Assembly: GCA_044356335.1 (NCBI GenBank)
Contig: JBIKWL010000006.1
Coordinates: forward strand, 9,848 to 73,847
Source: Candidatus Sericytochromatia bacterium
GTDB taxonomy: Bacteria > Cyanobacteriota > Sericytochromatia > UBA7694
Reading direction: 5' to 3'
DNA: 64,000 nt
Shown here: positions 2,337 through 55,606 of the stretch, piece by piece
How the letters are laid out: each line of letters starts with the position of its first letter
Numbering within the stretch: position 1 is the first letter of the stretch
The notes under the pieces: model-generated
Told to the model about the DNA's origin: nothing
The model's input: only the letters and a program-made list of their open reading frames with translations
The model's database searches: none
Program-made: the position numbers and the translations under genes

Positions 2337-2570
2337 CTACCGTTGGCGTTGTGAAGCCAAGATGGAGGGAACCGAAATAGCACGCCTGCGACGTGAATTG
2401 GCCAGTGTCAGTGTGTCTTTGACCTCCACCTCTAGTGTGTGGCCTGCCAAGCGATGGCGCAAGGTAAAACTAACCTGAGCTTGGCGGTCGGTGGGGCTGG
2501 ATTTGGTGATTTTCCAGTTTTTCAGGTTTTGCGGCAATAGGCTGGCGATCCAAAAGCCGTCCGCGTCCAC
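2337..2570 (-). pseudogene. orphan fragment duplicating the 3' end (last ~70 codons) of the 949-aa surface protein gene at 8068..10917
   Basis: The 77-aa ORF reads ...DADGFWIASLLPQNLKNWKITKSSPTDRQAQVSFTLRHRLAGHTLEVEV, almost identical to the C-terminus of the 8068..10917 product. DNA at 2396-2625 is ~95% identical to 8103-8315. Confidence 0.6.
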
Positions 2571-4563: not shown

Positions 4564-4832
4564 AACGAACTGTGCCCCAAACGCTTGCTGAATGTCAAAC
4601 AGATGAGCAACGTGCAGACTATCTTGTAAAGCAGGATGTCTTTGAAAGCGATGAATTTAAGTATGAAGGGGTTGCTGAGCCTCCCCGTCGTCGCTTGATG
4701 CAGCAATTGCATATGCGGATTGATGAAGAGACGATTGTTCGTCTGCGCAAAGTGGCTGACAGCAAGCGCATGGGGTATCAGACTTTGGCCAGGATGTGGC
4801 TGATAGAGCGCTTAGAACAAGAAGATGTCTGA
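4560..4832 (+). CDS. BrnA-like (COG3514) antitoxin with C-terminal RHH-like DNA-binding motif
   Basis: 90 aa. The C-terminus HMRIDEETIVRLRKVADSKRMGYQTLARMWLIER matches the RISIRLDxDVL...GYQTRINAxLRE signature of BrnA antitoxins. The toxin-first, overlapping gene order is typical of brnTA. Confidence 0.55.
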   Translation: MKRTVPQTLAECQTDEQRADYLVKQDVFESDEFKYEGVAEPPRRRLMQQLHMRIDEETIVRLRKVADSKRMGYQTLARMWLIERLEQEDV

Positions 4833-8041: not shown

Positions 8042-8170
8042 TTAATTGCCTCCTAACTTCGGCATGCTCAGTTACCCTCCGGGTAGAGGATATAGCGGCC
8101 AGTGTTGGCCAAGGTGTCTTGGACCTCCACCTCTAGTGTGTGGCCTGCCAGGCGATGGCGCAAGGTAAAA
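7174..8170. repeat. direct repeat copy B of the ~1 kb segmental duplication
   Basis: See copy A. The 8103-8170 stretch (3' end of the big gene) is present three times (also 2396-2465 and 4135-4200). Confidence 0.85.
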
Positions 8171-18008: not shown

Positions 18009-18533
18009 ATGTCGTCTGTCTCTGAGCCCTTATCTGCATTCGAAACGTCTTCCCTCGAAATCGCTTCATGGGAAAGCCAACGTGCGCCTGAGCCCGTGGG
18101 AGCTTATCCCCACGCTCGGCGGGTGGGCAATTTGCTCTTTTTGTCTGGTTTGGGGCCCCGGCAGCGCGGCAGCAAAACCATTCCGGGTGTGACCCTCGGC
18201 CCCAGCGGCGAAATTCTGGCTTACGATATCTCGCTCCAATGCCATTCGGTTTTTGCCAATGTGCGCACGGTGCTGCAAGAAGCGGGGGCCCGCTGGGAAG
18301 ATCTCGTCGATGTCACGGTCTACCTCACCGATATGCAGGCAGATTTTCAGACCTTTAACCGCCTCTGGGCTGAGTATTTTCCCGATCCGGCTACGCGTCC
18401 CTGCCGCACAACAGTTGAGGTGGGCGCTTTGCCCACGCCGATTGCGATTGAACTCAAATGCCTGGCCGAATTTAAATCCACCCAAGCCACTCAATCTGCT
18501 CAAGGAGCATCCCATGCTGCCCATCCCGATTAA
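18009..18533 (+). CDS. RidA/YjgF-family deaminase, probably 2-aminomuconate deaminase of the kynurenine branch
   Basis: 174 aa with a YjgF/RidA fold signature (...AYPHARRVGNLLFLSGL..., ...DVTVYLTDM...). The 2-aminomuconate deaminases AmnD and NbaF belong to this family. Its 3' end overlaps the HAAO gene start. Confidence 0.7.
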   Translation: MSSVSEPLSAFETSSLEIASWESQRAPEPVGAYPHARRVGNLLFLSGLGPRQRGSKTIPGVTLGPSGEILAYDISLQCHSVFANVRTVLQEAGARWEDLVDVTVYLTDMQADFQTFNRLWAEYFPDPATRPCRTTVEVGALPTPIAIELKCLAEFKSTQATQSAQGASHAAHPD

Positions 18534-19044
18534 TTTTATGCAGTGGATCGAAGACCACCGCGAATTGCTCAAGCCGCCTGTGGGCAATCAGGTGGTCTGG
18601 CAAGACACCGAATTTATGATCATGGTGGTGGGTGGGCCGAATACGCGCAAAGATTACCATATTAATCAGGGTGAAGAGTTCTTTTACCAGCTCGAAGGGG
18701 ATATCACCCTGAAAGTGATCGAGCAGGGCCAGCCCCGCGATTTACCGATTCGCCAGGGTGAGATTTTTCTCTTGCCGGGCAATGTGCCACACTCGCCCCG
18801 CCGTCCGGCCCACACCATCGGACTGGTGATCGAGCGCAAGCGCCGCGCTGACGAAATTGATGGCTTTCAGTGGTACTGTGAAAACTGTGGTCACAAGCTC
18901 TATGAGGAGTTTTTGCCCGTAACCGACATTGTCAGCCAATTGCCACCCGTCTTTGAGCGTTTTTTTAGCGACCCTGCCCATACCACCTGTGGCCAATGTG
19001 GCACAGTCATGGAACGTCCCGTCTCCCCTTCGGAGGAAAAATGA
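18514..19044 (+). CDS. 3-hydroxyanthranilate 3,4-dioxygenase
   Basis: Cupin with C-terminal rubredoxin-like CxxC...CxxC (CENCGHK...CGQCG). The AAGGAG RBS at 18503-18508 precedes ATG 18514; the track ORF 18253..19044 is over-extended at its N-terminus. Confidence 0.8.
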   Translation: MLPIPINFMQWIEDHRELLKPPVGNQVVWQDTEFMIMVVGGPNTRKDYHINQGEEFFYQLEGDITLKVIEQGQPRDLPIRQGEIFLLPGNVPHSPRRPAHTIGLVIERKRRADEIDGFQWYCENCGHKLYEEFLPVTDIVSQLPPVFERFFSDPAHTTCGQCGTVMERPVSPSEEK

Positions 19045-20057
19045 AAATAGATATCCACACCCATATTTTACCCGAAAAGCTGCCCAATTTTGTCGAAAAA
19101 TTTGGCTATCCAGGTTTTGTCGAACTGCATCACCACACGCCGGGCAAAGCCCTGATGGTCAAAGGCGGCAAGGTTTTTCGCGAAATCGACAGCAATTGCT
19201 GGGACCCGGCTGTGCGCCTGCTGGAATGTGATCAACACGCTGTCGATGTGCAGGTTTTGTCCACCATTCCGGTTTTGTTTAATTATTGGGCCGTGCCCGA
19301 AGACGCCCTCGAAGTTTCGCGCTATCTCAACGATCACTTGGCCGAAGTCGTGCGGGAGAACCCCCGCCGTTTTGTGGCCTTGGGCACCTTGCCTTTGCAA
19401 GAACCCAAGTTGGCGATTGCCGAACTCGAACGCTGCATGACCGAATTGGGGTTTGCCGGGATTGAAATTGGCACCCATGTCAACGATTGGAATCTCGATG
19501 AGCCTGCGCTCTTTCCGATTTTAGAGGCCTGTCAAGACCTCGGCGCTGCGGTTTTTGTCCACCCTTGGGACATGCGCGGCGTGAAAAATCTACAAAAATA
19601 CTGGCTGCCCTGGTTGGTGGCCATGCCCTTTGAAACCGCTGCTGCGATTTGTTCGCTGATCTTTGGCGGCGTGATGGAGCGTCTGCCCAAGCTGCGTTTG
19701 GCCTTTGCCCATGGGGGCGGGTCTTTTCCCTGCTTGGTGGGCCGGATTGAACACGGCTTTCAGGTGCGGCCCGATCTCTGTGCCGTGAATCAAATCCGCA
19801 ACCCGCGTGAGTATATTCGCCAGTTTTGGGTCGATTCACTGGTGCATGATGCCGGTTCGATGCGTGGTTTATTGGAGATCTTCGGTGAAAACCGGATTAT
19901 TTTGGGCAGCGATTATCCCTTCCCGCTGGGTGAAGATCATCCTGGCAGTCTGATTGAGTCGATGTCCGAAATTTCACCCGCGCTGCGTGAGAAACTGTTG
20001 TTTAGCAATGCGCTGGAGTGGCTCGGGCGCGAATCCCAGCATTTTTGCTGTAATTGA
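19041..20057 (+). CDS. 2-amino-3-carboxymuconate-6-semialdehyde decarboxylase (amidohydrolase_2 family)
   Basis: MKIDIHTHILPE... metal-binding HxH start and overall ACMSD-like sequence. ATG 19041 is preceded by GGAGGAAAA and overlaps the HAAO stop by 4 nt. Confidence 0.8.
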   Translation: MKIDIHTHILPEKLPNFVEKFGYPGFVELHHHTPGKALMVKGGKVFREIDSNCWDPAVRLLECDQHAVDVQVLSTIPVLFNYWAVPEDALEVSRYLNDHLAEVVRENPRRFVALGTLPLQEPKLAIAELERCMTELGFAGIEIGTHVNDWNLDEPALFPILEACQDLGAAVFVHPWDMRGVKNLQKYWLPWLVAMPFETAAAICSLIFGGVMERLPKLRLAFAHGGGSFPCLVGRIEHGFQVRPDLCAVNQIRNPREYIRQFWVDSLVHDAGSMRGLLEIFGENRIILGSDYPFPLGEDHPGSLIESMSEISPALREKLLFSNALEWLGRESQHFCCN

Positions 20058-20155
20058 CAAGTTTAAACAAAGACGCTTTACTGGATTGATACAGAGGGGC
20101 AGAACCTGAATCTTTGCGCGCTTATTTTTAGCCTATCAAGAGAAGGGTTCCTGTT

Positions 20156-21919
20156 ATGTTCAATTGTGGTAAAAAGTTTCAGCGATCTTCCCTGTCTATT
20201 TGCTTGGCCCTCTGTACCTGTCTGCTTCAGGCCTGTAATCCTGGCGACTTAGAGCGCCTCTTCAACCCTGCTGATTCTGAGCGCAATTCAACCCCCAATC
20301 AGGTCATTCCCGATGCAGAAACCCAAAGCAAGCCCAGTGCCGCTCCCTCGGGAGGTTTGCAAATTCCCTCGCCCCGTCCCAGTTTGTTTCGGCCACCGGG
20401 CCAGCAGAGTCCGATCCCCGTGTTGGCATCGGCTTCTCCGGGGGATGTCATCGCGATTTTGCCTGATCTGTACAATACCCGCATGCCGTTTAATTTTGGC
20501 TCTGTGGGTGCGCCGATGATCGGACGCCGCCATGAATTTTATGCGGGTCCCACCAGCCAATTTGCGCTGGATATTGAATTTAAAGCGCCATTGCCTGAGC
20601 TCGAAGGCAACGGTCTGATCGTCAAATCGGGTTCGGGTCAAATCTTGAAAAACCTGCGCAATTCAAATACGGTGTTGGTCAATGGCAACCTTGCTATTTT
20701 GGAATTAAATTGGAATGGCAAAGGCGACAAGCCCGAGGTCACGCTGCGGGCCTTGGGCAAAAAGAATTCAGGCGGGACATTCCCTGCCAAAGTCACAGCC
20801 TTGGGGGATCAGGTCAAGAGTATGCCTGTCACCCTTAATCAGCCGATCGAGGTTTTTTCGAACCCTGGTAACCAGGCCCAATTGCATTTTTTCACAGTCA
20901 CGGGCGTTCGGGGCAAAGACCTGGACATCATCGCAGATGGGCCGAGCACCGTCTATGTCAATCATGAGAGCCGGGGTTTTTTCTTTCCGAATGAAGGGAC
21001 CGCCCCCGATGAACGTATCGATGCGGGGAATCAGGGATTTGTGCATATCCCGGCCTCGCAGCAGGACACCCTGCTGGTGACGCTGGAAACCCCAGGCAAT
21101 TCCAAAGAGGCTGTTCATACGCGCTTCAGTGTCAACGAAGTCAAAGAGTTGATTGATTTAACCGTGCGTTTTCCGCGTCCACCCGCTGAATATGATATGG
21201 CTGGCCCGCAGACCTTGCTCGATCGAATGAGCGAAATTACCCGCTATGCCTCCTTGTCGCTCTACCAGATCACGGCAGGCCACACCCGCATTCGCAGTCT
21301 CAAAGTCTTGCTGGGGCAGGCCCAGCCTTTGGCCAAAATTGATGTGCGGGTCGATTCCAATTCCATCGCCCGTGATTTTATTCCTGAACATGCCGTTTTG
21401 GGGGGAACCCCTTTTGCTTTGATTGAACTTGAGAAAAAATGGTGGCTGCGTTTTAATACCCTCAGGGATCACCCCGGATTTGTCTTGGCGCACGAACTGA
21501 TCCACCACCGCTACGCGATTATGGATGAATATCTTGGCTCTTGGAAAATTGACGTGGAATTTCAATCGGGAAGTCTGGATGTCGGAATCGATCGTACCAG
21601 TACCAATTATTGTCCGAACTCTGTCATGTCTTCCCCTGTGGCTGAATTCTGCTGGCAGGGAAACCACAATCCCACGGGCAATCAAACCATTGCCTCACGT
21701 TTTGACAATCCCTTGACGCCCGGTGTGGTCGAAAAAAATTCCACCTGGGATCTCTATGCCTTTCGGGTGGGGGTGACTCCGCCCAATCATCACCCGCCTT
21801 TGATTCTCAAAGAGATTAAAAGATTGGAGCGCGACACCCAAACCAATGTGGTTTTGCCTTTGAGCAGCAGCATCGAAATGGGCACATTTTTGCCCGAGCT
21901 CAAAATCCCAACGCCTTAA
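20156..21919 (+). CDS. lipoprotein with HExxH motif (putative zinc metallopeptidase)
   Basis: Signal peptide with lipobox (LLQACN). FVLAHELIHHRYAIMDEY contains HExxH. Confidence 0.5.
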   Translation: MFNCGKKFQRSSLSICLALCTCLLQACNPGDLERLFNPADSERNSTPNQVIPDAETQSKPSAAPSGGLQIPSPRPSLFRPPGQQSPIPVLASASPGDVIAILPDLYNTRMPFNFGSVGAPMIGRRHEFYAGPTSQFALDIEFKAPLPELEGNGLIVKSGSGQILKNLRNSNTVLVNGNLAILELNWNGKGDKPEVTLRALGKKNSGGTFPAKVTALGDQVKSMPVTLNQPIEVFSNPGNQAQLHFFTVTGVRGKDLDIIADGPSTVYVNHESRGFFFPNEGTAPDERIDAGNQGFVHIPASQQDTLLVTLETPGNSKEAVHTRFSVNEVKELIDLTVRFPRPPAEYDMAGPQTLLDRMSEITRYASLSLYQITAGHTRIRSLKVLLGQAQPLAKIDVRVDSNSIARDFIPEHAVLGGTPFALIELEKKWWLRFNTLRDHPGFVLAHELIHHRYAIMDEYLGSWKIDVEFQSGSLDVGIDRTSTNYCPNSVMSSPVAEFCWQGNHNPTGNQTIASRFDNPLTPGVVEKNSTWDLYAFRVGVTPPNHHPPLILKEIKRLERDTQTNVVLPLSSSIEMGTFLPELKIPTP

Positions 21920-42126: not shown

Positions 42127-44052
42127 ATGTCAATATCACAAGCTGAAGTCTATTTTCAGGCTGCCCAGGCCCTCCAAGCGCAGGGCAATTTGGATGCGGC
42201 TGTCAGCCAATATCAGCAGGCCCTGCAATGCGATCCGCGTTTGGCCGCTGCTTATTTGCAATTGGCTCAGATGCAACAGACCTTGGGGCAGCCTGCACAA
42301 GCTGTGCAAAACCTCTTAAAATACATCCAATTTCGGCCTAACGAAGTGGCTGTGTATGTGGTGATTGGGAATCTATTGCTGTTTTTGAAACAACCGGAAC
42401 AGGCCCAGCGCTATTTTTTAAAGGCCCTTGAACTTGAACCGGGCCATCCCGAGGCGCTGAGTACCTGGCTGACAATTAAAACCGATCACGATCCCGCCAA
42501 AATGTTGGATCTTTTGCTGAGTATGGCTCAGTCTCAGCCCGAATTGCGGAGTATTATCGCCTGTCAAGTGGGTCGCATGATGGAGACTGTTCATAACAGT
42601 CAAGAAGCAGCTAAATGTTATGCTTTTGCTCTCGAAGATCCCCTTTTGATGGAGCGTCAAGCATGGGAATTAAAAAGCCAATTGCTCGTACCTGTGATCT
42701 CTCCCGATCGGGCCTATCAAGAAAAATACCTGCAAGGCACCCAAGCTTGGTTGGACCATTGGGAACAGGCTCCAGCACCTGAAACACCCTGGATTTTGCC
42801 TGATTTTAGCAATGTGGAGGCCTATTTCTTAAATTGGTTACCCCTTGAAGGCATGGCCTATACCTATCTCAATCCCTACCGTGAGCGTCAGCGTTTGGGG
42901 GCGATTCTCAAACGCTGGCTGCCGGTCTTGCCTCAAAGCAGCCGGACGTCTTTGCGCCCAGAGCGCCGCCGGGTTGGGTTTGTGCTTGGGCCCTCAGGCG
43001 CAGTTTTGAATTTTATGGTGGGTCTCTTGCAGCGTTTGCCTCCAGCTGATCTGGATGTGCATATTTTGCACACCCACCGCATCAGCGCTGCCCATTTTTC
43101 CCAAGAGCAGCTGCGCCCAGAATTTAACTACCATTTGCTGGCTGATGATTTGGCTGCGGCCTATCAGCAGGTTTTAGCCTTGGATTTGGATATTCTCTAT
43201 TTGACCGAACCCAATGCTCAGCAGCCCCTGCAATCGCTGCTTTCATCCTTTCGCCTGGCCCCGGTTCAGGTTACTTCTTGGTTGAGTTCAGGCAGTACAG
43301 GCCAGCCCGAAATGGATTATTTTCTCTCTTCTCATGTGCTTGAACAAGCTGAAAATCCCCAGCGTTTTTATAGCGAGCAACTGGTTTTACACCAAACCAT
43401 TCCGACTTATTTCTTTCGGCCCGAAACAGTCAATACTTATACTCGGGCGGATTATGGCTTGCCTGAAGCGGACCATTTGTATATTTGTCCCCATGTGATG
43501 AGTAAAATTCAGCCCGATTTGGACACGCTTTTTGAAGGCATTTTGCGCCAAGACCCGCTGGGCCATCTGGTCTTGCTCACCAATCCCGACAATCGCCACT
43601 ACCAGCGAATTTTGTTGCAGCGCTTTGAAAATACATTTCCCGATCTGATGTCTCGGATTTGGTTTCTGCCCTATCTCAAGCCGCAAGAGTATTTGAATTT
43701 ATTGACGCTGGGCGACGTGATGCTCGACCCACTCTATTTTGGGGGCGGCACCACGACCTATGAAGCTCTCTCAGCAGGGATTCCCATTATCACTTGGCCT
43801 GCCGATCGCCTGCATGGGCGGATTACCCATGCCTGTTATCTCAAAATGGGCCTGTCTGATTGTGTCGCACATTCTGCCGAGGACTATATTCAAAAAGCTG
43901 TTGCAATCGCCTCAGACCCCACACTCAATCAACGCATGCGTACGCAGATTCTGGCTCAGGCACCGCTGATCTTTGAAGAAGATCTTGCCGTGGACGAACT
44001 GATCGCTTTTTTATGCCAAGTAGAGGTGCGCGCCCGAAAGACGGCAACCTGA
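42127..44052 (+). CDS. TPR-repeat + GT41 (O-GlcNAc-transferase-like) glycosyltransferase, intact paralogue of the frameshifted gene at 14122..16339
   Basis: 641 aa. N-terminal TPRs, then ...RVGFVLGPS..., ...LDLDILYLTEPNAQ..., ...LAPVQVTSWLSSGSTGQPEMDYFLSSH... and ...FGGGTTTYEALSAGIPIITWPAD..., parallel to the other copy. Confidence 0.7.
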   Translation: MSISQAEVYFQAAQALQAQGNLDAAVSQYQQALQCDPRLAAAYLQLAQMQQTLGQPAQAVQNLLKYIQFRPNEVAVYVVIGNLLLFLKQPEQAQRYFLKALELEPGHPEALSTWLTIKTDHDPAKMLDLLLSMAQSQPELRSIIACQVGRMMETVHNSQEAAKCYAFALEDPLLMERQAWELKSQLLVPVISPDRAYQEKYLQGTQAWLDHWEQAPAPETPWILPDFSNVEAYFLNWLPLEGMAYTYLNPYRERQRLGAILKRWLPVLPQSSRTSLRPERRRVGFVLGPSGAVLNFMVGLLQRLPPADLDVHILHTHRISAAHFSQEQLRPEFNYHLLADDLAAAYQQVLALDLDILYLTEPNAQQPLQSLLSSFRLAPVQVTSWLSSGSTGQPEMDYFLSSHVLEQAENPQRFYSEQLVLHQTIPTYFFRPETVNTYTRADYGLPEADHLYICPHVMSKIQPDLDTLFEGILRQDPLGHLVLLTNPDNRHYQRILLQRFENTFPDLMSRIWFLPYLKPQEYLNLLTLGDVMLDPLYFGGGTTTYEALSAGIPIITWPADRLHGRITHACYLKMGLSDCVAHSAEDYIQKAVAIASDPTLNQRMRTQILAQAPLIFEEDLAVDELIAFLCQVEVRARKTAT

Positions 44053-46171: not shown

Positions 46172-47902
46172 TTAGTGGGGAGCGATTTCAACAAAACTCA
46201 TCTCATTGCGGATCAGCGGGTGCATTTGCTGGCCGCGCACATAGGGCTGCACGAGTTTGTATTCGACATTGGTGTACAAGAAGATCCAGGGGGCATCTTC
46301 GATGATCATGCTCTCAGCGTCTTGGTAGAGTTTTTCACGCTCAGACCAGTTGACGGTGGTGCGGGCCTTGTTCACCAAGGTGTCAAAAGTTGGGTTTTTA
46401 TAGCGGGTCACGTTATCCTGGCCAATGTTTTTGCTGTTAAACAGGGTCCAGAGATAATTGTCGGGATCGGGATAATCTGCGGCCCAGCCGAATCTGAAAA
46501 AAGTCGCTTCGTTGCGTTTGATCTTTTCGATATACGAGGCCCATTCCATCGATTTGACCTCGATGTCTACACCGAGATCGCGCAAATCGGCCTGGACTGC
46601 GGCACCCAACATGGCATAGATTGCGCTCTGGTTGTGCCAAAAGGTCACTTTTAAAGGCTTGCCATTTTTGTCGAGAATGCCGTCACCATTGCTGTCGGTC
46701 CAACCGGCTTGGGCCATCATCGCTTTGGCTTTGTTTAAATCGTAGGGGTAGGGAATGGCGCGGTCGGCTTTAAAGGCGGGGAAGCCATTTGGCAAGACAC
46801 CGCGTGCAGGAATCCCGCGCCCGTTGCGCACCACGTCGATGATCTTGCGTTTATTCACGGCAAAATTAAAGGCCTGGCGCACGGTTTTGTCTTTAAAGGG
46901 CTCAGACTGGGTGTCCATACCCAGATACTGAATGGTCCACTCTTTGTCTTTGATCACGTTGGATTGGGCGGGATCATTCAGGCTTTCGATTTTACGAATC
47001 GCTTTGTTGCCGAGTTTGTTCCAGTGCGGATCGGTCAGGATGCGGTCAAAACTGGCGGCGGGAATCGGGGGCTCGAGATGCTCCAATTCGCCGTTTTCAA
47101 ACCAGAGCAGGCGAATATCTTCGCTGGGCACGATATAAAAGCGCAGTTCGTCGAGTTTTGGAATGCCAGGCTCAAAGAAATTCGGGTTTTTGACCAGCAC
47201 CAATTTTTGGTTGGACTTCCACTCTTTGAGCATAAAGGGGCCTGTGCCGGTGGCGTGAAAAGAAAATTGATCTTTCCATTTTTTGACTTCGTTTTGAGGC
47301 ACGACGTAATAATAAGACATTGCGAGCACGTGTAAGGCAAAGGGAATGACATCTTTGAGGGTAATCGAGACGGTGTAGTCGTCGATCACTTTGACACTGT
47401 CGAGGTGAACGGTCTGGCCCGCTTGGCAGGCCTTTTGGTACGCTTCGAGCCCGGCCAATGAAAGTCCATCGAGGGTCCACATGCCTTTGGAGGCATTGCG
47501 GGGATCCGCCAGGCGCTCAATCGAAAATTTGACATCCGAAGCGGTGAATGCGTCGCCATTGTGGAATTTAACGCCTTTGCGCAGTTGAAAGGTATAGGTT
47601 TTGCCATCGGGCGAAATTTTCCAGGACTCTGCCAGATCGGGCACCAGATCTGAGAGCTTTTGGTTGGGGCCCGTGATCCGGGGACGGTAGCGCACAAGGC
47701 CGTTGTAAATATTGTGGCCGACATCGTGGGACTGCGTATCGCCGATTTGAATCGGGTCAAGCGAGGGCACATCTCCTTCAAAGGCACTGCGGTAGACTTT
47801 TTTATTGCTGTCGGGAGGGCGACAGGCGCTCAGCGGAGAGAGCAATGCCCCTGTGCACAAAGCGGCGATACTCAAGCGAATCCACGGTTTAACGAGCTGC
47901 AT
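46172..47902 (-). CDS. ABC transporter substrate-binding lipoprotein, peptide/nickel (family 5, OppA/DppA-like)
   Basis: SBP_bac_5-like throughout. The likely start is MQLVKPWIRLSIAALCTGALLSPLSAC (lipobox) at 47902; the track ORF extends to 47983. Confidence 0.75.
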   Translation of the reverse strand: MQLVKPWIRLSIAALCTGALLSPLSACRPPDSNKKVYRSAFEGDVPSLDPIQIGDTQSHDVGHNIYNGLVRYRPRITGPNQKLSDLVPDLAESWKISPDGKTYTFQLRKGVKFHNGDAFTASDVKFSIERLADPRNASKGMWTLDGLSLAGLEAYQKACQAGQTVHLDSVKVIDDYTVSITLKDVIPFALHVLAMSYYYVVPQNEVKKWKDQFSFHATGTGPFMLKEWKSNQKLVLVKNPNFFEPGIPKLDELRFYIVPSEDIRLLWFENGELEHLEPPIPAASFDRILTDPHWNKLGNKAIRKIESLNDPAQSNVIKDKEWTIQYLGMDTQSEPFKDKTVRQAFNFAVNKRKIIDVVRNGRGIPARGVLPNGFPAFKADRAIPYPYDLNKAKAMMAQAGWTDSNGDGILDKNGKPLKVTFWHNQSAIYAMLGAAVQADLRDLGVDIEVKSMEWASYIEKIKRNEATFFRFGWAADYPDPDNYLWTLFNSKNIGQDNVTRYKNPTFDTLVNKARTTVNWSEREKLYQDAESMIIEDAPWIFLYTNVEYKLVQPYVRGQQMHPLIRNEMSFVEIAPH

Positions 47903-47965
47903 AAGGGTCTCTCTCCCGGCGAAATAATGATGGGGTTTGCTCTGTAGTTTAGCATATTCCTTTTT

Positions 47966-47990
47966 TTTGCCGATTGGAATCAAGCTGAAG
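47966..47990. repeat. left copy of imperfect 21-bp direct repeat flanking the AT-rich island (tttgcCgattGGaatcaagctgaag)
   Basis: Compared by eye with 51094-51118 (tttgcTgattAAaatcaagctctgc): 18 of 21 core positions are identical. Confidence 0.4.
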
Positions 47991-48099
47991 TGGCTATTGT
48001 TGCTTTAAACTGCGATTGAATTTACAATTCCTACGTTCGATTGCTCTGTCTGCTTATTGAAGATTAATAGCAAAATAAAAGTAATATAAACATAAGCCT

Positions 48100-51072
48100 G
48101 TGCACCCTCTCGAAAAACTTTATCCACAGCTCAAAAACAGTGAGCCCTCCTCTCTGCAAATGGATTCTTTTTTGGCACATATGGATCTGATGCAAAGCTA
48201 TTTGGTTTTTTGCTTTGGTCTGCAGGCTGAAAAAAAGATGAGCTTCTACCATTTGGGTGAAATGCATTTTTATTCAAATCAAGTTTATTTATCTGACAGA
48301 TATGACTCTTTGGACATCATCAAAAAAAGTCTCTTTTCTGCCCAGGATTATTTTCAAAAGGGATATGCCTCTTATGAGAGAAATAATTCAGATTTTTATT
48401 TATTGGAAGATGAAATTGTTGGATTTGAATTAACTTGTAATTATTACATTGTGTTATTTGATTTTTTAATTGGAGACAGAGCTAAAAGTGTCGAAATGGC
48501 CAGATCCGAATTGGATAAAAATAAGGATCTGATGCATGAAGACTTGAAGTCCATCTATAAATACATCATAGAGCATGATTTAAACTGTTCTCCTTTCGAG
48601 ATTTTAAGTGCATTCTACCGAGGTGATTTTAAAAATATTTTTTTTAAAACGATAAAATTATCTCAATATCAATTAGATGAAGATGATTTTTCTCGTTCAA
48701 TTAAATTAAAAATGGATTTACTCTTTTACACAGAAGAGTATGGTTTTAATTATCAACAGGTAACATGGCGTTCCTCTCTTTTAAAGCATCTCTATGCATC
48801 TGAATACCCTGAATCAGAAAAAGTAAACGTCTTGAGCCTGATTCAAAATGATCACAGCTTCAAAGATAGCTGTTTAAAAAGCCAACTCAATTATTTTGAA
48901 CTCAATCAGACACTGCCTGAATCCATCGATATTTTGGTTGATTGGCAATGCCAAGATCTAAACCGGCTGACATCGTCTTTGCGGATGGTCAAAGACGGAG
49001 GTCTCTGTTTAATTGCTGTACCGCGTTCCTGTACAAATCCCGAAGTCATCAGAAAAGAAATGGAAATTGGAATTCAAGCAAGCTGTTTTTTAATAGACAG
49101 GGAAAGCTTTTCTGATATTTTAATTGTCTATGGTTTTAAAAATAGAAAATTTAATCTGCATACCCGCCTTTTGATTTTGATGCGTCCGGATTCTGTTCAA
49201 GCCATGGGTGGCGCTGATATACAGCTATTCAAAAGCCGTGCAAGGCTTAAACATGCGGGTATTTGCTCAGATATTTCACTGGCTTGCCGCTTAGATAGCA
49301 GAGTTTATGCTTGTATCTATGTTGTTGGCTACTACCATGAAATATATAAATTTAATTATCTAAATCAAAGTAATCTGCCAAAATTATGCATGCCCATCGC
49401 TTCTCTCTGCTTTGAAGAGAGTCAGGTTTCGGACTACTTTATTGGTATGTTTAAGCATGATCTGCAAGAAAAAATTACTTCTAATCACAAAAATTTGCTT
49501 TGTATTGAAAATATAAATTTTTTAAGACAATCAATTTTAAATAAGTTAGCATTAGATTCAAATTGGAATAATCGCTTTTACAAGGAACTGGCCAAGTCCT
49601 GTGATTATTTTATTCCACAAAGTCAAAAAGAAATGGATCTATTATTCCCCCAACGGGATTACAAAGAATTCGAACTGGTTTTTAATGGCTGTAATTTTGC
49701 GGGTGTTGTCGAAGAAAAGTCAAACATTTTTGTGGATACACACAAAATTAATGATTATATCATTTGTGTCGGACGGATCCAAGCCAACAAAAATCAACTT
49801 TTTTTGGCTTATGCCTTACGGGAAACCGAGATCCCACTTGTCTTAATTGGCAGAGAATTTCAGCAAGGCTATCTCAAATTATGCCAAGATCTGGGCAATA
49901 ATCAGGTTTATCATTTTGAGGATGTATCTTCGGACATGTTGCTCTCGGCGTTACAAAACGCCCGACTATTTGTTTTACCGAGTTTTTCAGAGGTCTCTCC
50001 CCTTTCTTCTATTGAGGCAGCAATGATCGGTGTGCCTGTGGTTTTAACCCAAAATTCAGGCCAAGATGAGCAATTTAAAGATGCTTTTTATTATTGTGAT
50101 CCCTGGGATCCAGAAAACATAAAAGAGGTAATTGTTAAGGCTTTTTATGCTGATAACAGCGATAAAATAAAAAGAGCTAAAGAAATAGCTGAAAAAACGT
50201 CGTCATGGTCGATTATGTCTGATAAAATTGCAAATATAATTTATATGCTGATTGGAAGAGAGAACGGCGATAATTATATTCAATATCAGGACAAGTGGTT
50301 TAAACTCCTCCCAGCTTTGGCAGAACAGGATAAATCCGTTGATATCGCACATTCAGCTTATCAGCCGAGTATTTATCCAATTGCCAATGTCGGTACCTTT
50401 CTTGCCCAACAATATGATCCGCTCATATACAAAGACGTGTTTTTAATTGTCAATACAGACCTTGCGGAATTCAAAATGAAACAATTGGGTTTTGAAAACA
50501 CCATTAAACAAATACCAAGTCCCAATCAATCAACTTATTTGGGTGGGGTGAGTCTGGCCCTTGAAGATGCTTGCCAAAGGAATTTGCTCTGTTTCTATGA
50601 CCCTGAAAATATCTTTTCATGGCAAGAAACCATCCTGGCTTATATTGAGGGGCACAGTCCAGAAGATAACTGTGTTTTATTTATTTGCACGTATGATTGT
50701 GATGACAGCCACTATCCAGAAGAAGAGATCTCAGATTATTTAATCAGCCAAGGATGTGACCTTGAAAGTATTCCAAACATCTCCATCTTGACGGATTTTA
50801 AAGCACAAAAACAATTAAAAGACCTGTTTAAATCTGTCGACATCCTTGTTTTTCCAGCCAAGACCCTCTGGGGATACGAGTCTTTGTACTATCAAATCAT
50901 TTACTCTGAAAAAACAGTCATTACCCACCCGTTTAATAGGGGGATTCACACTCAGAAAATTATTTATTTAGAGCCATTTGAATCACTTTGCCAACTCCCT
51001 TCTTTTGCGGAGATTCCAGTTTCTGTTCAGACCCTGAGCCAGTGCTTAAAATTGGCCGATCCCTCTCGCTGA
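48100..51072 (+). CDS. 990-aa multidomain glycosyltransferase (central GT4 domain with EX7E motif) encoded in an AT-rich island; N- and C-terminal domains unassigned
   Basis: GT4 C-terminal core: ...ICVGRIQANKNQLFLAYAL...LVLIGR...FVLPSFSEVSPLSSIEAAMIGVPVVLTQNSG.... Codon/amino-acid usage is strongly AT-biased (K, N, I, F, Y rich), unlike the flanking genes. Confidence 0.6.
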   Translation: MHPLEKLYPQLKNSEPSSLQMDSFLAHMDLMQSYLVFCFGLQAEKKMSFYHLGEMHFYSNQVYLSDRYDSLDIIKKSLFSAQDYFQKGYASYERNNSDFYLLEDEIVGFELTCNYYIVLFDFLIGDRAKSVEMARSELDKNKDLMHEDLKSIYKYIIEHDLNCSPFEILSAFYRGDFKNIFFKTIKLSQYQLDEDDFSRSIKLKMDLLFYTEEYGFNYQQVTWRSSLLKHLYASEYPESEKVNVLSLIQNDHSFKDSCLKSQLNYFELNQTLPESIDILVDWQCQDLNRLTSSLRMVKDGGLCLIAVPRSCTNPEVIRKEMEIGIQASCFLIDRESFSDILIVYGFKNRKFNLHTRLLILMRPDSVQAMGGADIQLFKSRARLKHAGICSDISLACRLDSRVYACIYVVGYYHEIYKFNYLNQSNLPKLCMPIASLCFEESQVSDYFIGMFKHDLQEKITSNHKNLLCIENINFLRQSILNKLALDSNWNNRFYKELAKSCDYFIPQSQKEMDLLFPQRDYKEFELVFNGCNFAGVVEEKSNIFVDTHKINDYIICVGRIQANKNQLFLAYALRETEIPLVLIGREFQQGYLKLCQDLGNNQVYHFEDVSSDMLLSALQNARLFVLPSFSEVSPLSSIEAAMIGVPVVLTQNSGQDEQFKDAFYYCDPWDPENIKEVIVKAFYADNSDKIKRAKEIAEKTSSWSIMSDKIANIIYMLIGRENGDNYIQYQDKWFKLLPALAEQDKSVDIAHSAYQPSIYPIANVGTFLAQQYDPLIYKDVFLIVNTDLAEFKMKQLGFENTIKQIPSPNQSTYLGGVSLALEDACQRNLLCFYDPENIFSWQETILAYIEGHSPEDNCVLFICTYDCDDSHYPEEEISDYLISQGCDLESIPNISILTDFKAQKQLKDLFKSVDILVFPAKTLWGYESLYYQIIYSEKTVITHPFNRGIHTQKIIYLEPFESLCQLPSFAEIPVSVQTLSQCLKLADPSR

Positions 51073-51093
51073 GAGGCAGATCGCTGCCCCTGA

Positions 51094-51118
51094 TTTGCTG
51101 ATTAAAATCAAGCTCTGC
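51094..51118. repeat. right copy of imperfect direct repeat flanking the AT-rich island
   Basis: See 47966-47990. Confidence 0.4.
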
Positions 51119-51196
51119 GCTTGACGTCTCTCAAGGAGGGCCAGCCCAAAAGCCCCTACACTGAGGATGGAGAGATCTTCTCAGGAGGAACACATC

Positions 51197-52750
51197 ATGG
51201 CTGCGCGTTGGCTGGGACTTTTGGCTTTGATCATCAGCTTGGGAGGCTGTCAGCTTCGTGCCGTGTCACCTCTGCCAGCGGGGCAATTGGCTTTTCGTTG
51301 GCAACATCCCTCTGCCAGCTTCACGCTGGCTGCAATACCTGAGCAGACCCGCTTCTTTCAGATTTCCATTCGTGGTGCAGGCCTGAGCCAGCCACTGGAA
51401 ACCGAAATAAACGCTTTATTGCCCAGTGCGCGCAGCTACCGTCTGTCTTTGCCCGTGGGCCCCAAAGAGGTCACCGTCGTGGCCTATGATCAGCACAAGG
51501 CCTTGAGCCGGGCCCAGGTGTCGGTGGAGATCCGTCCAGCCATGCTGACCCAGGCCGAAATGGAGCTGGTCGGGATTTTAAATCCCTTGCAACTCGACTT
51601 GCAGGCTGCTTGGCCTTTGCCTTTGGAATTGGAGTTGGAACTCAGTGGCAAGGCCCTTCGAGATGCACAGCCCTGGCGTTTTTCTTTGCTTTTGCCTGCC
51701 GGTCAAACGACGCTGAATCTGCCAGATATCCCCGCTGAAGAGGCCTTCTTGCGTCTGCGTACACGTCCCCAAGGGCAGGCACAATGGGGACAATGGCTTG
51801 AGCAAAAACTGACAGGCAGCTTGCCGCTGAAGGCTCCCTTTTTGGCTGAAAGGGTCTTGGAGAGCTGGCAGGCCTTTGTGCCTGAATGGCTCTCCGGCCA
51901 ACCCGAAGGCGTGCAGGTGCGTATTTTGGCTCTGATGGGCAGTCTCCAATTGACGCGTTTGCTTCGCTCTGCTCAATTAAACCCTGTTTTGCGGGCCCGA
52001 ATTCAAGCCGAACTGGATCGCAAACGCAGTGCGGGCAATGCCTCTGGCTTGCCATCCCCGGTTATTGCCCCGCCTCTTGTGGCCTCTGGTTCTCCTGCCC
52101 CGCAGATTTCGGCCTCTCCGCAAGTGACACCTTCTCCCAGCCCAGTGGTCAGTGGCTTGCCGAACACGGTGCCCACCTCTCCTTTGGCTTTTTATCTGGT
52201 CGAAGCGGGAGACAGCTATTTGCGTTTGGCCTGGGAGCCTGTCAATGGCGCAAGCGCCTACAGCCTCAGGCTGGATGGGCAATTATTGAGTAATAGTCTT
52301 AACTATACAACCTATTCCCTGAATGGGCTCAGCCCACAGACCCGTTATCATTTTCTGCTGCGGGCCCACAACCAAGCGGGTGAGAGTGGGGCGGTGACCC
52401 TGGTCGCTCAAACCCTGGCTACAGGTGCCCGCACCACAGGGGGTGGAAGTGACCCCGCTCCAACGGCAACGCCCTTGCCGGCCCCTGTGCTGGAGTCGGT
52501 CAGTCCGCTTCATGCCAATATTGGCAGCCGTTTGATCCTGCGGGGACAACATTTTTATCCGCCAGTTCAGGTTCAATTTGATGGGCTTTACCCCGCTGCA
52601 GTTGTCTCTCTGACCGAACATGAGATTCAAGTGGAAATTCCTGCTTTGGCCCGCTTGGGTCAGATCCAGGTCCAGACAGCCAGTGGGGCTTTTTCGACGG
52701 CAATTTTGATTCAAATGGGCGCGGTACAACTTGATGGAGGTTATCATTAA
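51197..52750 (+). CDS. surface lipoprotein with fibronectin-III-like and C-terminal IPT/TIG domains
   Basis: AGGAGG RBS at 51181-51186, then ATG 51197. Signal peptide with LGGC lipobox; the track ORF starts earlier, at 51167. Fn3-like ...YLRLAWEPVNGASAYSLRLDG...YHFLLRAHNQAGES, and TIG-like ...VLESVSPLHANIGSRLILRGQHF.... Confidence 0.6.
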   Translation: MAARWLGLLALIISLGGCQLRAVSPLPAGQLAFRWQHPSASFTLAAIPEQTRFFQISIRGAGLSQPLETEINALLPSARSYRLSLPVGPKEVTVVAYDQHKALSRAQVSVEIRPAMLTQAEMELVGILNPLQLDLQAAWPLPLELELELSGKALRDAQPWRFSLLLPAGQTTLNLPDIPAEEAFLRLRTRPQGQAQWGQWLEQKLTGSLPLKAPFLAERVLESWQAFVPEWLSGQPEGVQVRILALMGSLQLTRLLRSAQLNPVLRARIQAELDRKRSAGNASGLPSPVIAPPLVASGSPAPQISASPQVTPSPSPVVSGLPNTVPTSPLAFYLVEAGDSYLRLAWEPVNGASAYSLRLDGQLLSNSLNYTTYSLNGLSPQTRYHFLLRAHNQAGESGAVTLVAQTLATGARTTGGGSDPAPTATPLPAPVLESVSPLHANIGSRLILRGQHFYPPVQVQFDGLYPAAVVSLTEHEIQVEIPALARLGQIQVQTASGAFSTAILIQMGAVQLDGGYH

Positions 52751-52751
52751 A

Positions 52752-55520
52752 ATGAAAAAAATCTATGGACTCTGCTTGACTCTTGCCCTGGCTGCTTGTC
52801 AGGCGCTTCCTCCCTCTGTCAGTGGGCCTCAGACTCTTGCGGGTATTTCTCAGGCCCATTCTGCCCCGGTCCTGATGCCGGGTAAAAAGAATTCTCCAGC
52901 TCTTTCGGGGACCGTTGAAATTCATGTTGCGGGCCGCCAAGGAACCACCGTTCAAATGCGGATTCAGGTTCCGCGCGCTTTGTTTCAAGGCTTTCGCACC
53001 CAAGATTCCGAAAGCCATTTTGCCAATTTTGCCTATTTGCGTTTCAGTCTCAAGGCCCCCCCACTTGTGGACCCGATTTATCCACTGAATGCCCTGCGCG
53101 ATCCGGAACATCCTGAACAGGACTATTTGATTGAAAATACAGGCCAACCTTTGAATATTGTCTTTGAAAATATTCCCGCAGGTGAATTGCGTTTTGCCAG
53201 CATTACTGCATTTGACAGCCATAAACAGCCCATACCGGGTTCGACCATCGAAGCGGTTTTTCCCGTGGGGCTCGACAGCACACCCGTGAGCCGGGAAGTG
53301 ACTTTTCGGACCACCCCTTTGGCCCAGATTTTGAGCCTTCTTTTACAGGCTTCACTCGATTTAGCCAAGGGGCTCGACTTGGCTGGGTTACAGGCCTTTC
53401 TCGATCAGATCACGGGTCTGCAGGGCACGCGCCCCAATTATCTCTATACCCTGCAACATCCTTTGCAGCTCGATGTGGCCCTGTTGGTTGCAGATTTATT
53501 GGCCTTCAATGGCAATCTGGGTCTTTTGGACCCCCATAAAAATTACGCTTTGCCTTTGGGTCAATTGGTGGGACATGTACAGGGCCTGGCAGAAGGGGAT
53601 CACCTGGTGATTCAAACCTCTGATCTCAGTCAGCCGATTTTAGAAGTGACGGCCAATGGCGTTTTTCGTTTGGATGGCCTGCGTTCGGGTCTGTGGGATC
53701 TGTCTTATTGGGTTGAAGGGGGAGCAGAATATAACACGCCTCCCGATCGCCAAGTGGTGGTCAGTGGGGGGCACGATTTGGATTTGGGCCTGATTCCTGT
53801 GCTGGCAGAAAAACCTGTGATTGACTCCCTTTCTCGCTTTTCGGTTCCTGCGGGAGAATCATTTAGGATCTATGGCAGTGGTTTTCATGAGACTTTGGCT
53901 GGCAATCGGGTCTGGATTGGTGAACAACAAGCAGAAATACTCAATGCCTCTGATGAAGAATTGGAAGTCCGTGTGCCTGATGGCCCTGTGGGTGAGCAGG
54001 TGATTCGGCTTGAAATTGGCTCATCCTCGGAAAGTTATACTGGTTTTACGCGTACAGGGTTGGATGCGGTGACGCCCAACAGGGGGCGGATTGGCGATTG
54101 GATCACCCTCACAGGTTTGGCGCTGGACAATATCTTTCGCGTTAAAGTGAATCAAACCGAGGCCTCTTTTCAGCAGATCTCGGAGACAGAATTGCTGGTT
54201 CAGATTCCTGCAGGAGCAAGCAGTGGCAAGATCACGCTCCTTTATGGCGAAGGAGGACAAATGACTTCACCAGAGAACTTTGAAGTGACCAATAAAGTGC
54301 TCTTTGTGGCTCAACATCTGATGAGCGTGGCTGGTTTTGGTGAGGGAGAAGAAGCCTGGATCGGCGTTTCCCCTTCTTTGCAGGCTGCTTTGGCCAATGC
54401 TGACAGTGGGGATGAAATCTGGGTTGCGGAAGGGATCTATACCCCCGACCAGGCAGAAGGGGATCGCCATCTCTCTTTTCAGCTCAAAAATAACGTGGGT
54501 GTGTATGGGGGCTTTGCAGGTCATGAGCGAAACCGCCTAGATCGCGAGATCAGAAACAATCCCACGGTTTTGAGTGGGGATCTCAACGAAAATGATCAGG
54601 CTGAGGGAACTTCGCGGGAGGACAATAGTTATCACGTGGTGACCGCTTCAGGGGTATCTGCCACCACGGTTTTGGATGGCTTTATCCTTCAGGCTGGTCA
54701 AGCGGAGACCGGCGGTCTAATTTTGCAAGGCGGTGGGCTCTTGTGTCAAAACGCCTCTCCCAGCTTACGCAATTTGGTCATCAGAGACAATCACGCTGAT
54801 CGCAGTGGCGGTGGCATGGCCATTTTGGGAAGTGGTTCTCCACAGCTTGAGAATATGGTCTTTGAAAACAATCAGGCTGCCAATTCCGATCAGCAAGAGG
54901 CCACTGGGGGGGGGCTGCAGATCGAAACCGCCAGTGATTCCACACCCGTACTCAAAAATGTGGTTTTTGTGAATAATTTTGCCTTGAGTGATGGTGGGGC
55001 CCTGTTTGTTGCGGGGGCTCAACCTCGTCTGACCCAAGGCAGCTTTGTGGGCAATGGCACTGAAAACAGTGATGGCGGGAATGCCATTGGCATCCAGCAA
55101 AATGGCAGCCGCCTGGAATTACATAACAGTCTTTTCTGGCACAACCCAGGTCGGGATATTTCTGTGGCAGGAGGCCAATTGCAATTGGCGTATAATGGCC
55201 TTGAAGAAGGGTTGGCGGGGGTTTTGACCCATCCAGTGACGGGAGCGAGTTTTCAAGATCTGGGTGGAAATAGGACGCTCTCTCAAACTCCCTTTGCAGA
55301 TCTCTATCAACCACGGGGCAATGATCAGCGCTGGATGACTGCAGACGATGGCTTGATTCCGCCTTTGGAAAGTGATGTGGCTGATGCTGGCAATGGGGCT
55401 TTGGCTCCCAGTTTTGACATCGTGGGGCGGGCCCGGCCTTTTGGGGCGGGTTTTAGCATGGGGGCTTATGAAGAGGCTGAACTGCCTTATTCTTCTGGCT
55501 GTTATCCCTATGGCTGTTGA
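52752..55520 (+). CDS. large surface lipoprotein with two IPT/TIG domains and a C-terminal right-handed beta-helix (Pmp/pectin-lyase-like repeats)
   Basis: GGAGG RBS, then ATG 52752 (MKKIYGLCLTLALAAC lipobox); the track ORF starts at 52731. TIG: ...VIDSLSRFSVPAGESFRIYGSGF... and ...LDAVTPNRGRIGDWITLTGL.... Beta-helix repeats: GGGLLCQNASP / SGGGMAILGSGSP / DGGALFVAGAQP. Confidence 0.6.
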   Translation: MKKIYGLCLTLALAACQALPPSVSGPQTLAGISQAHSAPVLMPGKKNSPALSGTVEIHVAGRQGTTVQMRIQVPRALFQGFRTQDSESHFANFAYLRFSLKAPPLVDPIYPLNALRDPEHPEQDYLIENTGQPLNIVFENIPAGELRFASITAFDSHKQPIPGSTIEAVFPVGLDSTPVSREVTFRTTPLAQILSLLLQASLDLAKGLDLAGLQAFLDQITGLQGTRPNYLYTLQHPLQLDVALLVADLLAFNGNLGLLDPHKNYALPLGQLVGHVQGLAEGDHLVIQTSDLSQPILEVTANGVFRLDGLRSGLWDLSYWVEGGAEYNTPPDRQVVVSGGHDLDLGLIPVLAEKPVIDSLSRFSVPAGESFRIYGSGFHETLAGNRVWIGEQQAEILNASDEELEVRVPDGPVGEQVIRLEIGSSSESYTGFTRTGLDAVTPNRGRIGDWITLTGLALDNIFRVKVNQTEASFQQISETELLVQIPAGASSGKITLLYGEGGQMTSPENFEVTNKVLFVAQHLMSVAGFGEGEEAWIGVSPSLQAALANADSGDEIWVAEGIYTPDQAEGDRHLSFQLKNNVGVYGGFAGHERNRLDREIRNNPTVLSGDLNENDQAEGTSREDNSYHVVTASGVSATTVLDGFILQAGQAETGGLILQGGGLLCQNASPSLRNLVIRDNHADRSGGGMAILGSGSPQLENMVFENNQAANSDQQEATGGGLQIETASDSTPVLKNVVFVNNFALSDGGALFVAGAQPRLTQGSFVGNGTENSDGGNAIGIQQNGSRLELHNSLFWHNPGRDISVAGGQLQLAYNGLEEGLAGVLTHPVTGASFQDLGGNRTLSQTPFADLYQPRGNDQRWMTADDGLIPPLESDVADAGNGALAPSFDIVGRARPFGAGFSMGAYEEAELPYSSGCYPYGC

Positions 55521-55606
55521 GGGCGAATTCTGGATTTCCCGTCACTGAACCGGTCTGGGTCTCATGTTAGAATAGTCAGACACCCAAGCTTTTCAGGAGC
55601 AACCCC

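Follow-up and report, generated by a model that had tools for sequence, protein, structure and literature searches.

How does a single gene of conspicuously low G+C content come to lie between surface-protein genes of an uncultured bacterium, and what might its product do there? The question arises from a 64,000-nucleotide stretch of a Candidatus Sericytochromatia genome (GenBank assembly GCA_044356335.1, contig JBIKWL010000006.1, positions 9,848 to 73,847; hereafter the window, numbered from its first letter), in which an intact gene for a 990-residue, four-module glycosyltransferase (48100..51072, + strand, GTG start) fills an AT-rich insert. The explanation that best accounts for the evidence assembled here, and that we regard as probable while leaving real room for doubt, is that the insert is an accessory, laterally exchanged single-gene surface-glycan cassette, placed in the divergent intergenic region between a solute-binding gene and a lipoprotein operon.

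The insert is set apart by its base composition. In a 300-bp sliding profile, the G+C content (GC) runs at 0.29-0.41 from about 47900 to about 51100 and at 0.50-0.58 on either side, and the value for the insert as a whole (0.361) lies far below that of equal-sized windows elsewhere (mean 0.526, standard deviation 0.028, minimum 0.438). Among the 39 open reading frames (ORFs) of at least 200 residues in the window, the glycosyltransferase is the extreme case on all four measures considered: GC (0.363; next lowest 0.461), GC at third codon positions (GC3; 0.347, next lowest 0.459), the summed fraction of F, Y, M, I, N and K (0.335; next highest 0.303) and that of G, A, R and P (0.148; next lowest 0.180). 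A first-pass annotation of the window had described a sharp drop in base composition across one gene and its leader as well as an unusual protein rich in K, N, I, F and Y, and both descriptions hold. Base and codon usage of the cassette thus differ from those of the host, with a GC3 of 0.347 against about 0.6.

The host genome belongs to the Sericytochromatia and is 'Blackallbacteria'-like. With the conserved left-flank gene as anchor, a species-representative genome collection yielded four close genomes labelled Sericytochromatia or 'Blackallbacteria', and a metagenome scan for further syntenic loci added only one, more distant relative (L088). The identical protein was found on metagenome contigs of the Joint Genome Institute (L002 and L003), and a 51%-identical homologue is encoded in an NCBI genome labelled Candidatus Sericytochromatia (L001); all compared relatives are metagenome-assembled genomes. 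The gene order common to all of them runs sensor kinase, GTPase, solute-binding lipoprotein, two TIG lipoproteins, BioY, FecCD and radical S-adenosylmethionine (SAM) protein, and within this order the glycosyltransferase gene is found at two alternative positions. The window, L002, L003, L004 and L083 carry it at site A, which separates the solute-binding gene from the first lipoprotein gene; at site B, after the second lipoprotein gene and before BioY, L001 has the 51%-identical allele, whose GC is 0.36 in a background of 0.54. Neither site holds the gene in L005, L007 and L088. The closest relative of all, L005, shares 97-99.5% identity with the window in its flank proteins and yet is without the gene. 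The first-pass annotation had proposed a horizontally acquired single-gene island, and this proposal is supported by the foreign composition, by the presence or absence of the gene between the same flanking genes in related genomes and by the alternative site in L001; nor does the gene take on a native-like composition in its closest carriers, which are also 36% GC. Two of the carriers are fragmentary at this locus: the L004 contig ends within the low-GC gene (positions 1-406), and L083 is a 3280-bp contig holding little more than the gene. These breaks suggest that the cassette disrupts assembly or binning, and its absence from metagenome-assembled genomes may consequently be overestimated.

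The history of the gene is discordant with that of its hosts. Concatenated flanks place the relatives at synonymous divergences (dS) from the window of 0.17 (L005), 0.28 (L004), 0.31 (L007) and about 0.8 (L001), and on the flank tree the carriers are therefore not monophyletic, because L004, which has the gene, lies between L005 and L007, which do not. The simplest account of this distribution would be homologous recombination in the conserved flanks, by which the gene was transferred or lost. The divergence of the alleles is of two kinds. Between the window and the 90%-identical allele of L083, gene dS is 0.18 and that of neighbouring housekeeping genes 0.24-0.31 (ratio of nonsynonymous to synonymous divergence, dN/dS, 0.02-0.04), so that in these lineages the gene either co-diverged with its hosts or moved recently among them. 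Between the window and L001, in contrast, gene dS is saturated at 1.73 against 0.55-0.8 for the flanks, and both alleles keep a GC3 of 0.34-0.35 in genomes with a GC3 of about 0.62. The two allele groups are far older than the host genomes, and two imports from a low-GC pool would be favoured over a single old resident, because alleles of such age could hardly both have stayed at 36% GC had these genomes been their home all along. Purifying selection acts on the gene, as its dN/dS is 0.30 relative to the 90% allele and 0.23 relative to the 51% allele; a dN/dS of 0.30 at a dS of only 0.18 indicates a functional gene under relaxed but real constraint.

A history consistent with these observations would begin with alleles drawn from a low-GC gene pool, most likely that of other Sericytochromatia, since all placeable family members fall in that class and some of them have native composition. 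The first insertion would have been illegitimate or guided by short homology, replacing 30 bp of native sequence, and the cassette would then have spread, and been lost, among related species via homologous recombination in the conserved flanks, as is usual for surface-glycan genes of flexible islands.

Alignment to the unoccupied site A of L005, L007 and L001 delimits a cassette of 3115 bp (47961..51075, + strand, GC 0.361) that consists of a 139-bp leader and the one gene, with a right border uncertain by about 2 bp. The unoccupied site reads TAGCATATTCC, then 30 bp, then GCAGATC..., and the 30-bp native segment, CGGTTCTGGCTCTGCGGGCCCGAAGGCAAG, is identical in L005 and L007 and similar in L001. 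The cassette replaces this segment between 47960 and 51076, with no duplication at the junctions. Because the replaced 30 bp are conserved in all unoccupied genomes, the empty site A is the ancestral state. The AT-rich part of the leader (47987..48099, + strand) travels with the gene, in that the palindrome ATTGAATTTACAAT (48015-48028) and TAGCAAAATAAAAGTA (48068-48083) also lie upstream of the L001 allele at the other site (15/16 match, a score reached by 1 in 1000 shuffles). No convincing sigma-70 promoter was found in the leader, where promoter and terminator calls do not rise above shuffled expectation, and the Rfam search for structured RNA there gave only chance-level microRNA matches.

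The first-pass annotation had also reported an imperfect 21-bp direct repeat at the two borders and likened it to an attachment-site or target-duplication scar. The repeat itself is real and survives careful alignment: the left copy, TTTGCCGATTGGAATCAAGCT (47966..47986, + strand), and the right copy, TTTGCTGATTAAAATCAAGCT (51094..51114, + strand), agree at 18 of 21 positions. Comparison of 160-bp zones gave a match as good once in 400 simulated pairs and once in 395 pairs of real sequence, shuffling of the two leaders gave none in 1000-2000 trials, and the motif has no further copy in the 64 kb even with three mismatches allowed. Its interpretation as a scar, however, is not borne out. The left copy lies inside the cassette at the 5' tip, after a T run; its core is a GATT-NN-AATC palindrome, with two of the three mismatches falling in the spacer, and in the sister alleles of L004 and L083 it reads TTTGCCGATTTGGAATCAAGCG, which differs by one indel and one substitution. 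The right copy belongs to the leader of the lipoprotein operon and lies 18 bp beyond the junction; over its first 19 nt, TTTGCTGATTAAAATCAAG, no genome differs, whether the site is filled or empty (L005, L007, L001 and L083), and it is conserved and native rather than a product of the insertion. With the right copy native, the left copy within the insert and 30 bp replaced, the repeat is neither a target-site duplication, which the replacement and the native right copy rule out, nor a simple attL/attR product, which is ruled out by topology. An operator common to many genes was likewise rejected, as the 21-mer occurs only twice in 64 kb, its shorter core is not enriched and the spacing is changed in L004 and L083.

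Other hallmarks of mobility are equally missing. No tRNA gene lies within the 64-kb window to serve as a target, none of its ORFs of at least 200 residues has a recombinase or transposase domain by Pfam, in line with the earlier remark that no integrase or transposase is present, and neither junction duplication nor hybrid copies of a core site are seen, the left flank being without a native partner. The right repeat copy is overlapped by a hairpin upstream of the first lipoprotein gene (TCAAGC-TCTGC-GCTTGA; 51108..51124, + strand) that is followed by no T run, was not called as a terminator and has no Rfam match. Judged by eye, its stem is kept in L007 as ATCAAGT-GCAGA-ACTTGAT through a compensatory change of C-G to T-A, and it is also present in L001, L083 and L005.

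The ends of the cassette bear a further relation to its target. When joined, they read ...GGCCGATCCCTCTCGCTGA + GAGTTTTT + TTTGCCGATTGGAATCAAGCT..., and GGCAGATCCCTGCCCCTGA + TTTGCTGATTAAAATCAAGCT is the sequence of site A in L005 and L007, where it is empty. These sequences are collinear, with 33 matches in 40 positions and one 8-nt gap (score 32, where the best of 2000 shuffles reached 23), such that the joined ends of the element resemble its unoccupied target. The native 18 nt just outside the right junction, GCAGATCGCTGCCCCTGA (51076..51093, + strand), which are present in all unoccupied genomes, resemble the final 18-19 nt of the glycosyltransferase ORF, an in-frame TGA among them (15/19 match in L005 and L007). 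This match of the 3' part alone is marginal in an unconstrained search (p about 0.02) but is registered end to end, and GCAGATCGCTGCCCCTGA may be a remnant of the 3' end of an earlier cassette or a reused recombination site. In the L083 allele P0002 (3100-3152) the normal stop is lost and the frame runs on for seven codons into the native flank, ending at this very TGA, that of the native GCAGATCGCTG(C/T)CCCTGA element. Site B offers a parallel, as its unoccupied motif GGATTTCCCGTCACTGAA (55532..55549, + strand) nearly reproduces the terminal codons and stop of the allele that L001 carries at exactly this place (CGATCCCCGTCACTGAA); an exact 12-mer is shared, with a score reached by 4 of 2000 shuffles. 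A direct repeat flanking the L001 cassette is not significant (267 of 2000 shuffles matched or beat its score). The likeness between cassette ends and targets may reflect remnants of cassettes deleted from both sites, a reused recombination site or boundary elements shared by gene units of this locus, and L088 is too diverged to tell these readings apart.

What does the cassette encode? The GTG start at 48100 is supported by the other alleles, which have ATG at this point and share the N-terminus LYPQLKN. The protein was modelled with AlphaFold (AF2) from an alignment of the 11-member family (predicted local distance difference test score 77, predicted template modelling score 0.66), and a separate model of the C-terminus reached the same local score of 77. 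Four modules can be distinguished. Residues 1-235 (48100..48804, + strand) form an all-helical N-terminal domain with a beta-hairpin in the model, conserved in the family, for which no relative was found by PDB sequence or Pfam searches. Residues 236-352 (48805..49155, + strand) follow as a probable class-I methyltransferase-like Rossmann domain, suggested by the model topology and by PDB profile matches: all 18 weak matches (E 0.009-1.9) are SAM methyltransferases, and the beta-alpha topology is compatible with them. The Gly-rich SAM-binding motif I is degenerate, reading VNVLSLIQNDHS, and the stretch is deleted in P0007-P0009; the domain is probably non-catalytic. The third module, residues 353-721 (49156..50262, + strand), is the catalytic glycosyltransferase family 4 (GT4) domain of GT-B fold, placed by Pfam and the family alignment. 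Invariant in all 11 family members are G370-G371, G558-R559, K564 and the EX7E pair E631/E639; the GT4 catalytic centre is intact and under selection, and the two-Rossmann arrangement of the GT-B fold is present. Residues 722-990 (50263..51069, + strand) make up a second, diverged GT-B-like module that keeps a W-G-x-E motif and is probably non-catalytic, because it is without the second EX7E glutamate and the phosphate-binding R/K motif. This C-terminal module has no PDB relative by sequence and was resolved by fold only, with matches that include the inactive GT-B-like proteins Gap1 and Asp1 as well as GtfA.

The first-pass annotation had recognised only the GT4 domain and left about 600 residues unassigned. 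As far as Pfam is concerned the statement stands, since Pfam sees Glycos_transf_1 only (residues 552-695, 69.2 bits against a cut-off of 26.4), but the unassigned part shrinks to about 235 residues; the NCBIfam search matched only generic GT4 families, far below threshold. Inspection of sequence and model by eye reveals neither a signal peptide nor a membrane helix, and the enzyme would be cytoplasmic. Its architecture departs from that of the retaining GT4/GT-B enzymes PglA, PimA, BshA, HepE, WbnH and WaaG, which are single modules of about 350-400 residues. Relative to a PglA-type GT4, the protein has in addition the 235-residue helical, the degenerate methyltransferase-like and the second GT-B-like module, and its identity to solved structures is 12-18%.

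The family to which this protein belongs is small. Only 11 proteins in 5.8 billion share sequence words and full-length similarity with the glycosyltransferase, and a scan of 1.84 billion cluster representatives with a full hidden Markov model recovered the full architecture in about 8 clusters. The next-best relatives match the catalytic core only, within proteins of 1000-3400 residues that combine Methyltransf_11, GT2 and GT4 domains or carry multiple GT4 domains. Distant homologues in L084-L087, 29-33% identical, match the GC of their hosts, and in L084 a housekeeping neighbour gene is closest (69% identity) to proteins labelled Sericytochromatia. The placeable members of the family all lie within the Sericytochromatia; in some branches the gene is native, in that of the window it is a low-GC import. 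In L084, L085 and L087 the homologue is convergent with a directly adjacent gene that combines TPR with an O-GlcNAc-transferase-like GT41 domain (L084 12957-15005; L085 12925-14985; L087 10511-12574), in conserved synteny and beside LysM/M23 peptidase, GGDEF and PBP1 genes. A TPR-GT41 gene is also found 4 kb upstream of the cassette (42127..44052, + strand, Pfam). Its product is 33% identical over the full length to the TPR-GT41 neighbours in L084, L085 and L087, 97% identical to its counterpart in L005 and 59-63% identical to that in L001; the gene was not detected in the L088 region examined. Elsewhere, a TPR protein (14122-15456) and a GT41-domain ORF (15419-16339) overlap by 38 bp and look like a split or frameshifted TPR-GT41 gene. 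In L085 a sulfotransferase gene near the distant homologue (18494-20332) has a GC of 0.35-0.39 in a background of 0.49 and may be a small island of its own, belonging to another lineage of the Sericytochromatia.

The neighbours of the cassette are as the first-pass annotation had claimed, an OppA-like gene and two large surface lipoproteins; the latter, on the right, are TIG/fn3/beta-helix proteins with lipoboxes. The left flank is a conserved SBP_bac_5 lipoprotein gene (46172..47902, - strand, Pfam; 98-99% identical in relatives) whose true ATG lies at 47902; a longer ORF from a TTG reaches 47983 and overlaps the repeat as an artefact only. On the right, the first surface lipoprotein (51167..52750, + strand; likely ATG at 51197 after AGGAGG) contains fn3 and TIG domains and a Ser/Pro/Thr-rich linker, begins 94-124 bp downstream of the glycosyltransferase in the same orientation, and is 93% identical to its counterpart in L005 and 79% to that in L001. 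The second (52731..55520, + strand), with TIG and a right-handed beta-helix, is hypervariable: it is 65-67% identical to every relative (dS 1.26-1.54), whereas L005 and L007 share 92% identity between their copies. The DNA of the window and L005 is about 95% identical throughout the region except in the second lipoprotein gene, where identity is 62-80% with sharp borders, and the right border of this hypervariable stretch is site B. The second lipoprotein gene is a hot spot of allele replacement, and the glycosyltransferase is optional cargo at a place where a surface protein undergoes such replacement.

A function consistent with this setting can be outlined. The GT4 module, presumably of the retaining type, would take the sugar of a nucleotide sugar and pass it to a lipid-linked glycan or to a protein acceptor on its way to the cell surface, with the helical, methyltransferase-like and second GT-B-like modules serving as scaffold or acceptor-binding parts. 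Its most likely role would be the addition of a sugar to a strain-variable cell-envelope glycan or glycoconjugate. The gene would probably be co-transcribed with the adjacent variable lipoproteins, and together they would give each strain its own surface type, for which pressure from phages or grazers is a plausible driver.

Could the cassette instead be moved by a dedicated machinery, or not be moved at all? A recombinase encoded elsewhere might shuttle a circular cassette between docking sites A and B, recognising a composite of a ~19-nt element (G-GAT-YYC...CTGA) and, at site A, also the 21-nt element. Such a mechanism would explain why the joined ends match the unoccupied site so much better than shuffled sequences do, why a similar motif of about 18 nt, like the cassette's own 3' end, stands at the right junction of both sites, and why the cassette is co-oriented at A and B. 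It does not, however, predict a complete native 40-mer to the right of the cassette with no native duplicate on the left and 30 bp missing; and the lack of a tRNA in the window and of a recombinase or transposase domain in its ORFs of at least 200 residues, the insignificant repeat around the L001 cassette, the poor conservation of the left 21-mer in L004 and L083 and the marginal 3' similarity taken alone combine to make it unlikely. The broader notion that the locus is a 'cassette dock', at which units with a shared 5' 21-mer and a 3' G-GAT-YYC...CTGA overlapping the stop are swapped between the two sites, is a long shot. The same end similarities can be turned around, in that an old resident gene, ancestral neighbour of the lipoprotein operon, may have been deleted repeatedly, leaving remnants of its 3' end, while its low GC was kept for internal reasons such as regulation or expression level. 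The remnant-like last ~18 nt with in-frame stop at both sites in genomes without the gene fit such a history, as do the confinement of the placeable family to Sericytochromatia, the TPR-GT41 gene that is 4 kb away here too and has diverged to a similar degree (33% versus 30%), and the similarity of gene and flank dS between the window and the 90% allele. Residence of that length should nevertheless have moved GC3 towards the host composition, and the L001 and window alleles, saturated in dS between hosts that are not, both remain near 0.34 against genomes of about 0.62. Moreover, the 30 bp at site A are conserved in L005, L007 and L001, which is not the outcome of independent deletions; they show no significant similarity to the gene or its 3' region, and the outgroup L088 is without the gene at both sites. 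We consider the old-resident history rather improbable.

With respect to function, the enzyme might specifically glycosylate the two adjacent TIG lipoproteins, its GT4 and degenerate GT-B-like modules acting like a fused GtfA/GtfB and possibly extending a sugar placed by TPR-GT41. The gene adjoins the same lipoprotein pair in the same orientation at both sites with no terminator called between, the first lipoprotein offers a Ser/Pro/Thr-rich linker, Gap1, Asp1 and GtfA are among the fold matches of the C-terminal module, and a GT41 gene is nearby. Yet both lipoproteins persist in relatives that lack the gene, TIG proteins do not adjoin the distant family members, the three suggestive folds are few among dozens of equally good generic GT-B matches, and Pfam finds no oligosaccharyltransferase or accessory secretion genes in the vicinity. 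Lipoprotein glycosylation is thus weakly favoured by the co-orientation beside the same pair and weakened by the context of distant members, and in this specific form we hold it to be possible though doubtful. An anti-phage or inter-genomic conflict system, for example one glycosylating DNA or a toxin target, could be read from a weak match to PF20706, 'GT4-conflict' (27.7 bits against a cut-off of 26), which is stronger in some homologues. That match overlaps a much stronger generic Glycos_transf_1, no model of the PADLOC defence-system collection matches the gene or its neighbours, the cassette is a single gene without partner genes, and phage, viral-contig and plasmid collections hold no phage relatives, matching the gene only by a generic GT4 half-domain; a conflict role is scarcely credible.

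The laterally exchanged surface-glycan cassette, which we prefer, has its own difficulties, and several observations weigh against it. The context of the distant family members points to TPR-GT41 and cell-wall genes, not to lipoproteins. The relatives are metagenome-assembled genomes, for which absence of the gene holds for the compared locus and not for the whole genome. No donor was identified, the nearest non-orthologous relatives being just 29-33% identical. A purely illegitimate first insertion fails to explain the collinearity of the joined ends with the target, and the substrate, acceptor and cellular target of the enzyme are wholly inferred.

Comparison with known systems helps to place the locus. 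In enterobacteria, O-antigen and capsule clusters of low GC are framed by conserved flanks, and in marine Prochlorococcus, Synechococcus and Alteromonas hypervariable islands of glycosyltransferase genes are linked to phage pressure. The cassette shares with such flexible surface-glycan islands its low GC, its presence or absence, deep alleles between conserved flanks, the lack of mobility genes and a hypervariable surface neighbour; it differs in being one gene rather than a cluster, in having two alternative insertion points at one operon and in its uncultured Sericytochromatia host. In kind, then, it follows the known low-GC glycosyltransferase pattern of these islands and will not greatly surprise a specialist; two details are unusual, namely that it can lie to the left or the right of one operon and that its ends are collinear with the target. 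These same details recall integron or att-site cassettes, with which the locus has in common a promoter-poor single-gene unit, joined ends that resemble the empty target and alternative docking positions; here, in contrast, there is neither integrase nor hybrid site, and one side retains an intact native site where the other has lost 30 bp. As to the protein itself, multidomain polysaccharide enzymes that fuse methyltransferase, GT2 and GT4 domains include the WbdA/WbdD type of the Escherichia coli O9a polymannan and TagF-like multienzymes such as Cps3D. The next-best core relatives of our enzyme sit in proteins of this composition and Cps3D is among its fold matches, but here a single module looks competent, the SAM motif is lost and no transporter or polymerase genes lie alongside. 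The protein O-glycosylation of serine-rich-repeat adhesins in Gram-positive bacteria relies on the GtfA/GtfB pair, an active GT4 together with a GT-B-like partner that is inactive. An active GT4 followed by a GT-B-like module without catalytic motifs, the fold matches to GtfA, Gap1 and Asp1 and the surface-protein neighbours all recall this pair; the modules are fused here, however, with no serine-rich-repeat substrate and no accessory Sec genes, and the likeness is one of generic fold only.

Apart from the cassette, the window holds a second, milder low-GC patch (GC 0.40-0.47) over a 1001-residue ORF (5036-8041, - strand) that has no Pfam match and no paralogy with the glycosyltransferase. 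Beside it lie two large ORFs without matches (2522-4075 and 8068-10917) and small ORFs at 4279-4832, one of which weakly resembles a CopG antitoxin.

The Sericytochromatia, sister lineages of the oxygenic cyanobacteria, are uncultured and do not photosynthesise. To our knowledge almost nothing is known of their cell surface and genome variation, and our literature search on Sericytochromatia glycosyltransferases found nothing relevant. Were the locus indeed a cassette dock, it would imply an unidentified recombination mechanism that generates combinatorial surface types, each a lipoprotein allele with or without a glycosyltransferase allele, in these bacteria, and it would be considerably more interesting than a flexible island. 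As a flexible island, the locus provides a concrete case of strain-level surface variation in Sericytochromatia, in which a hypervariable beta-helix lipoprotein is combined with an optional glycosyltransferase on either side of the operon. The rare four-module glycosyltransferase family, recurrently linked to TPR-GT41, could in turn be a handle on protein or envelope glycosylation in Sericytochromatia.

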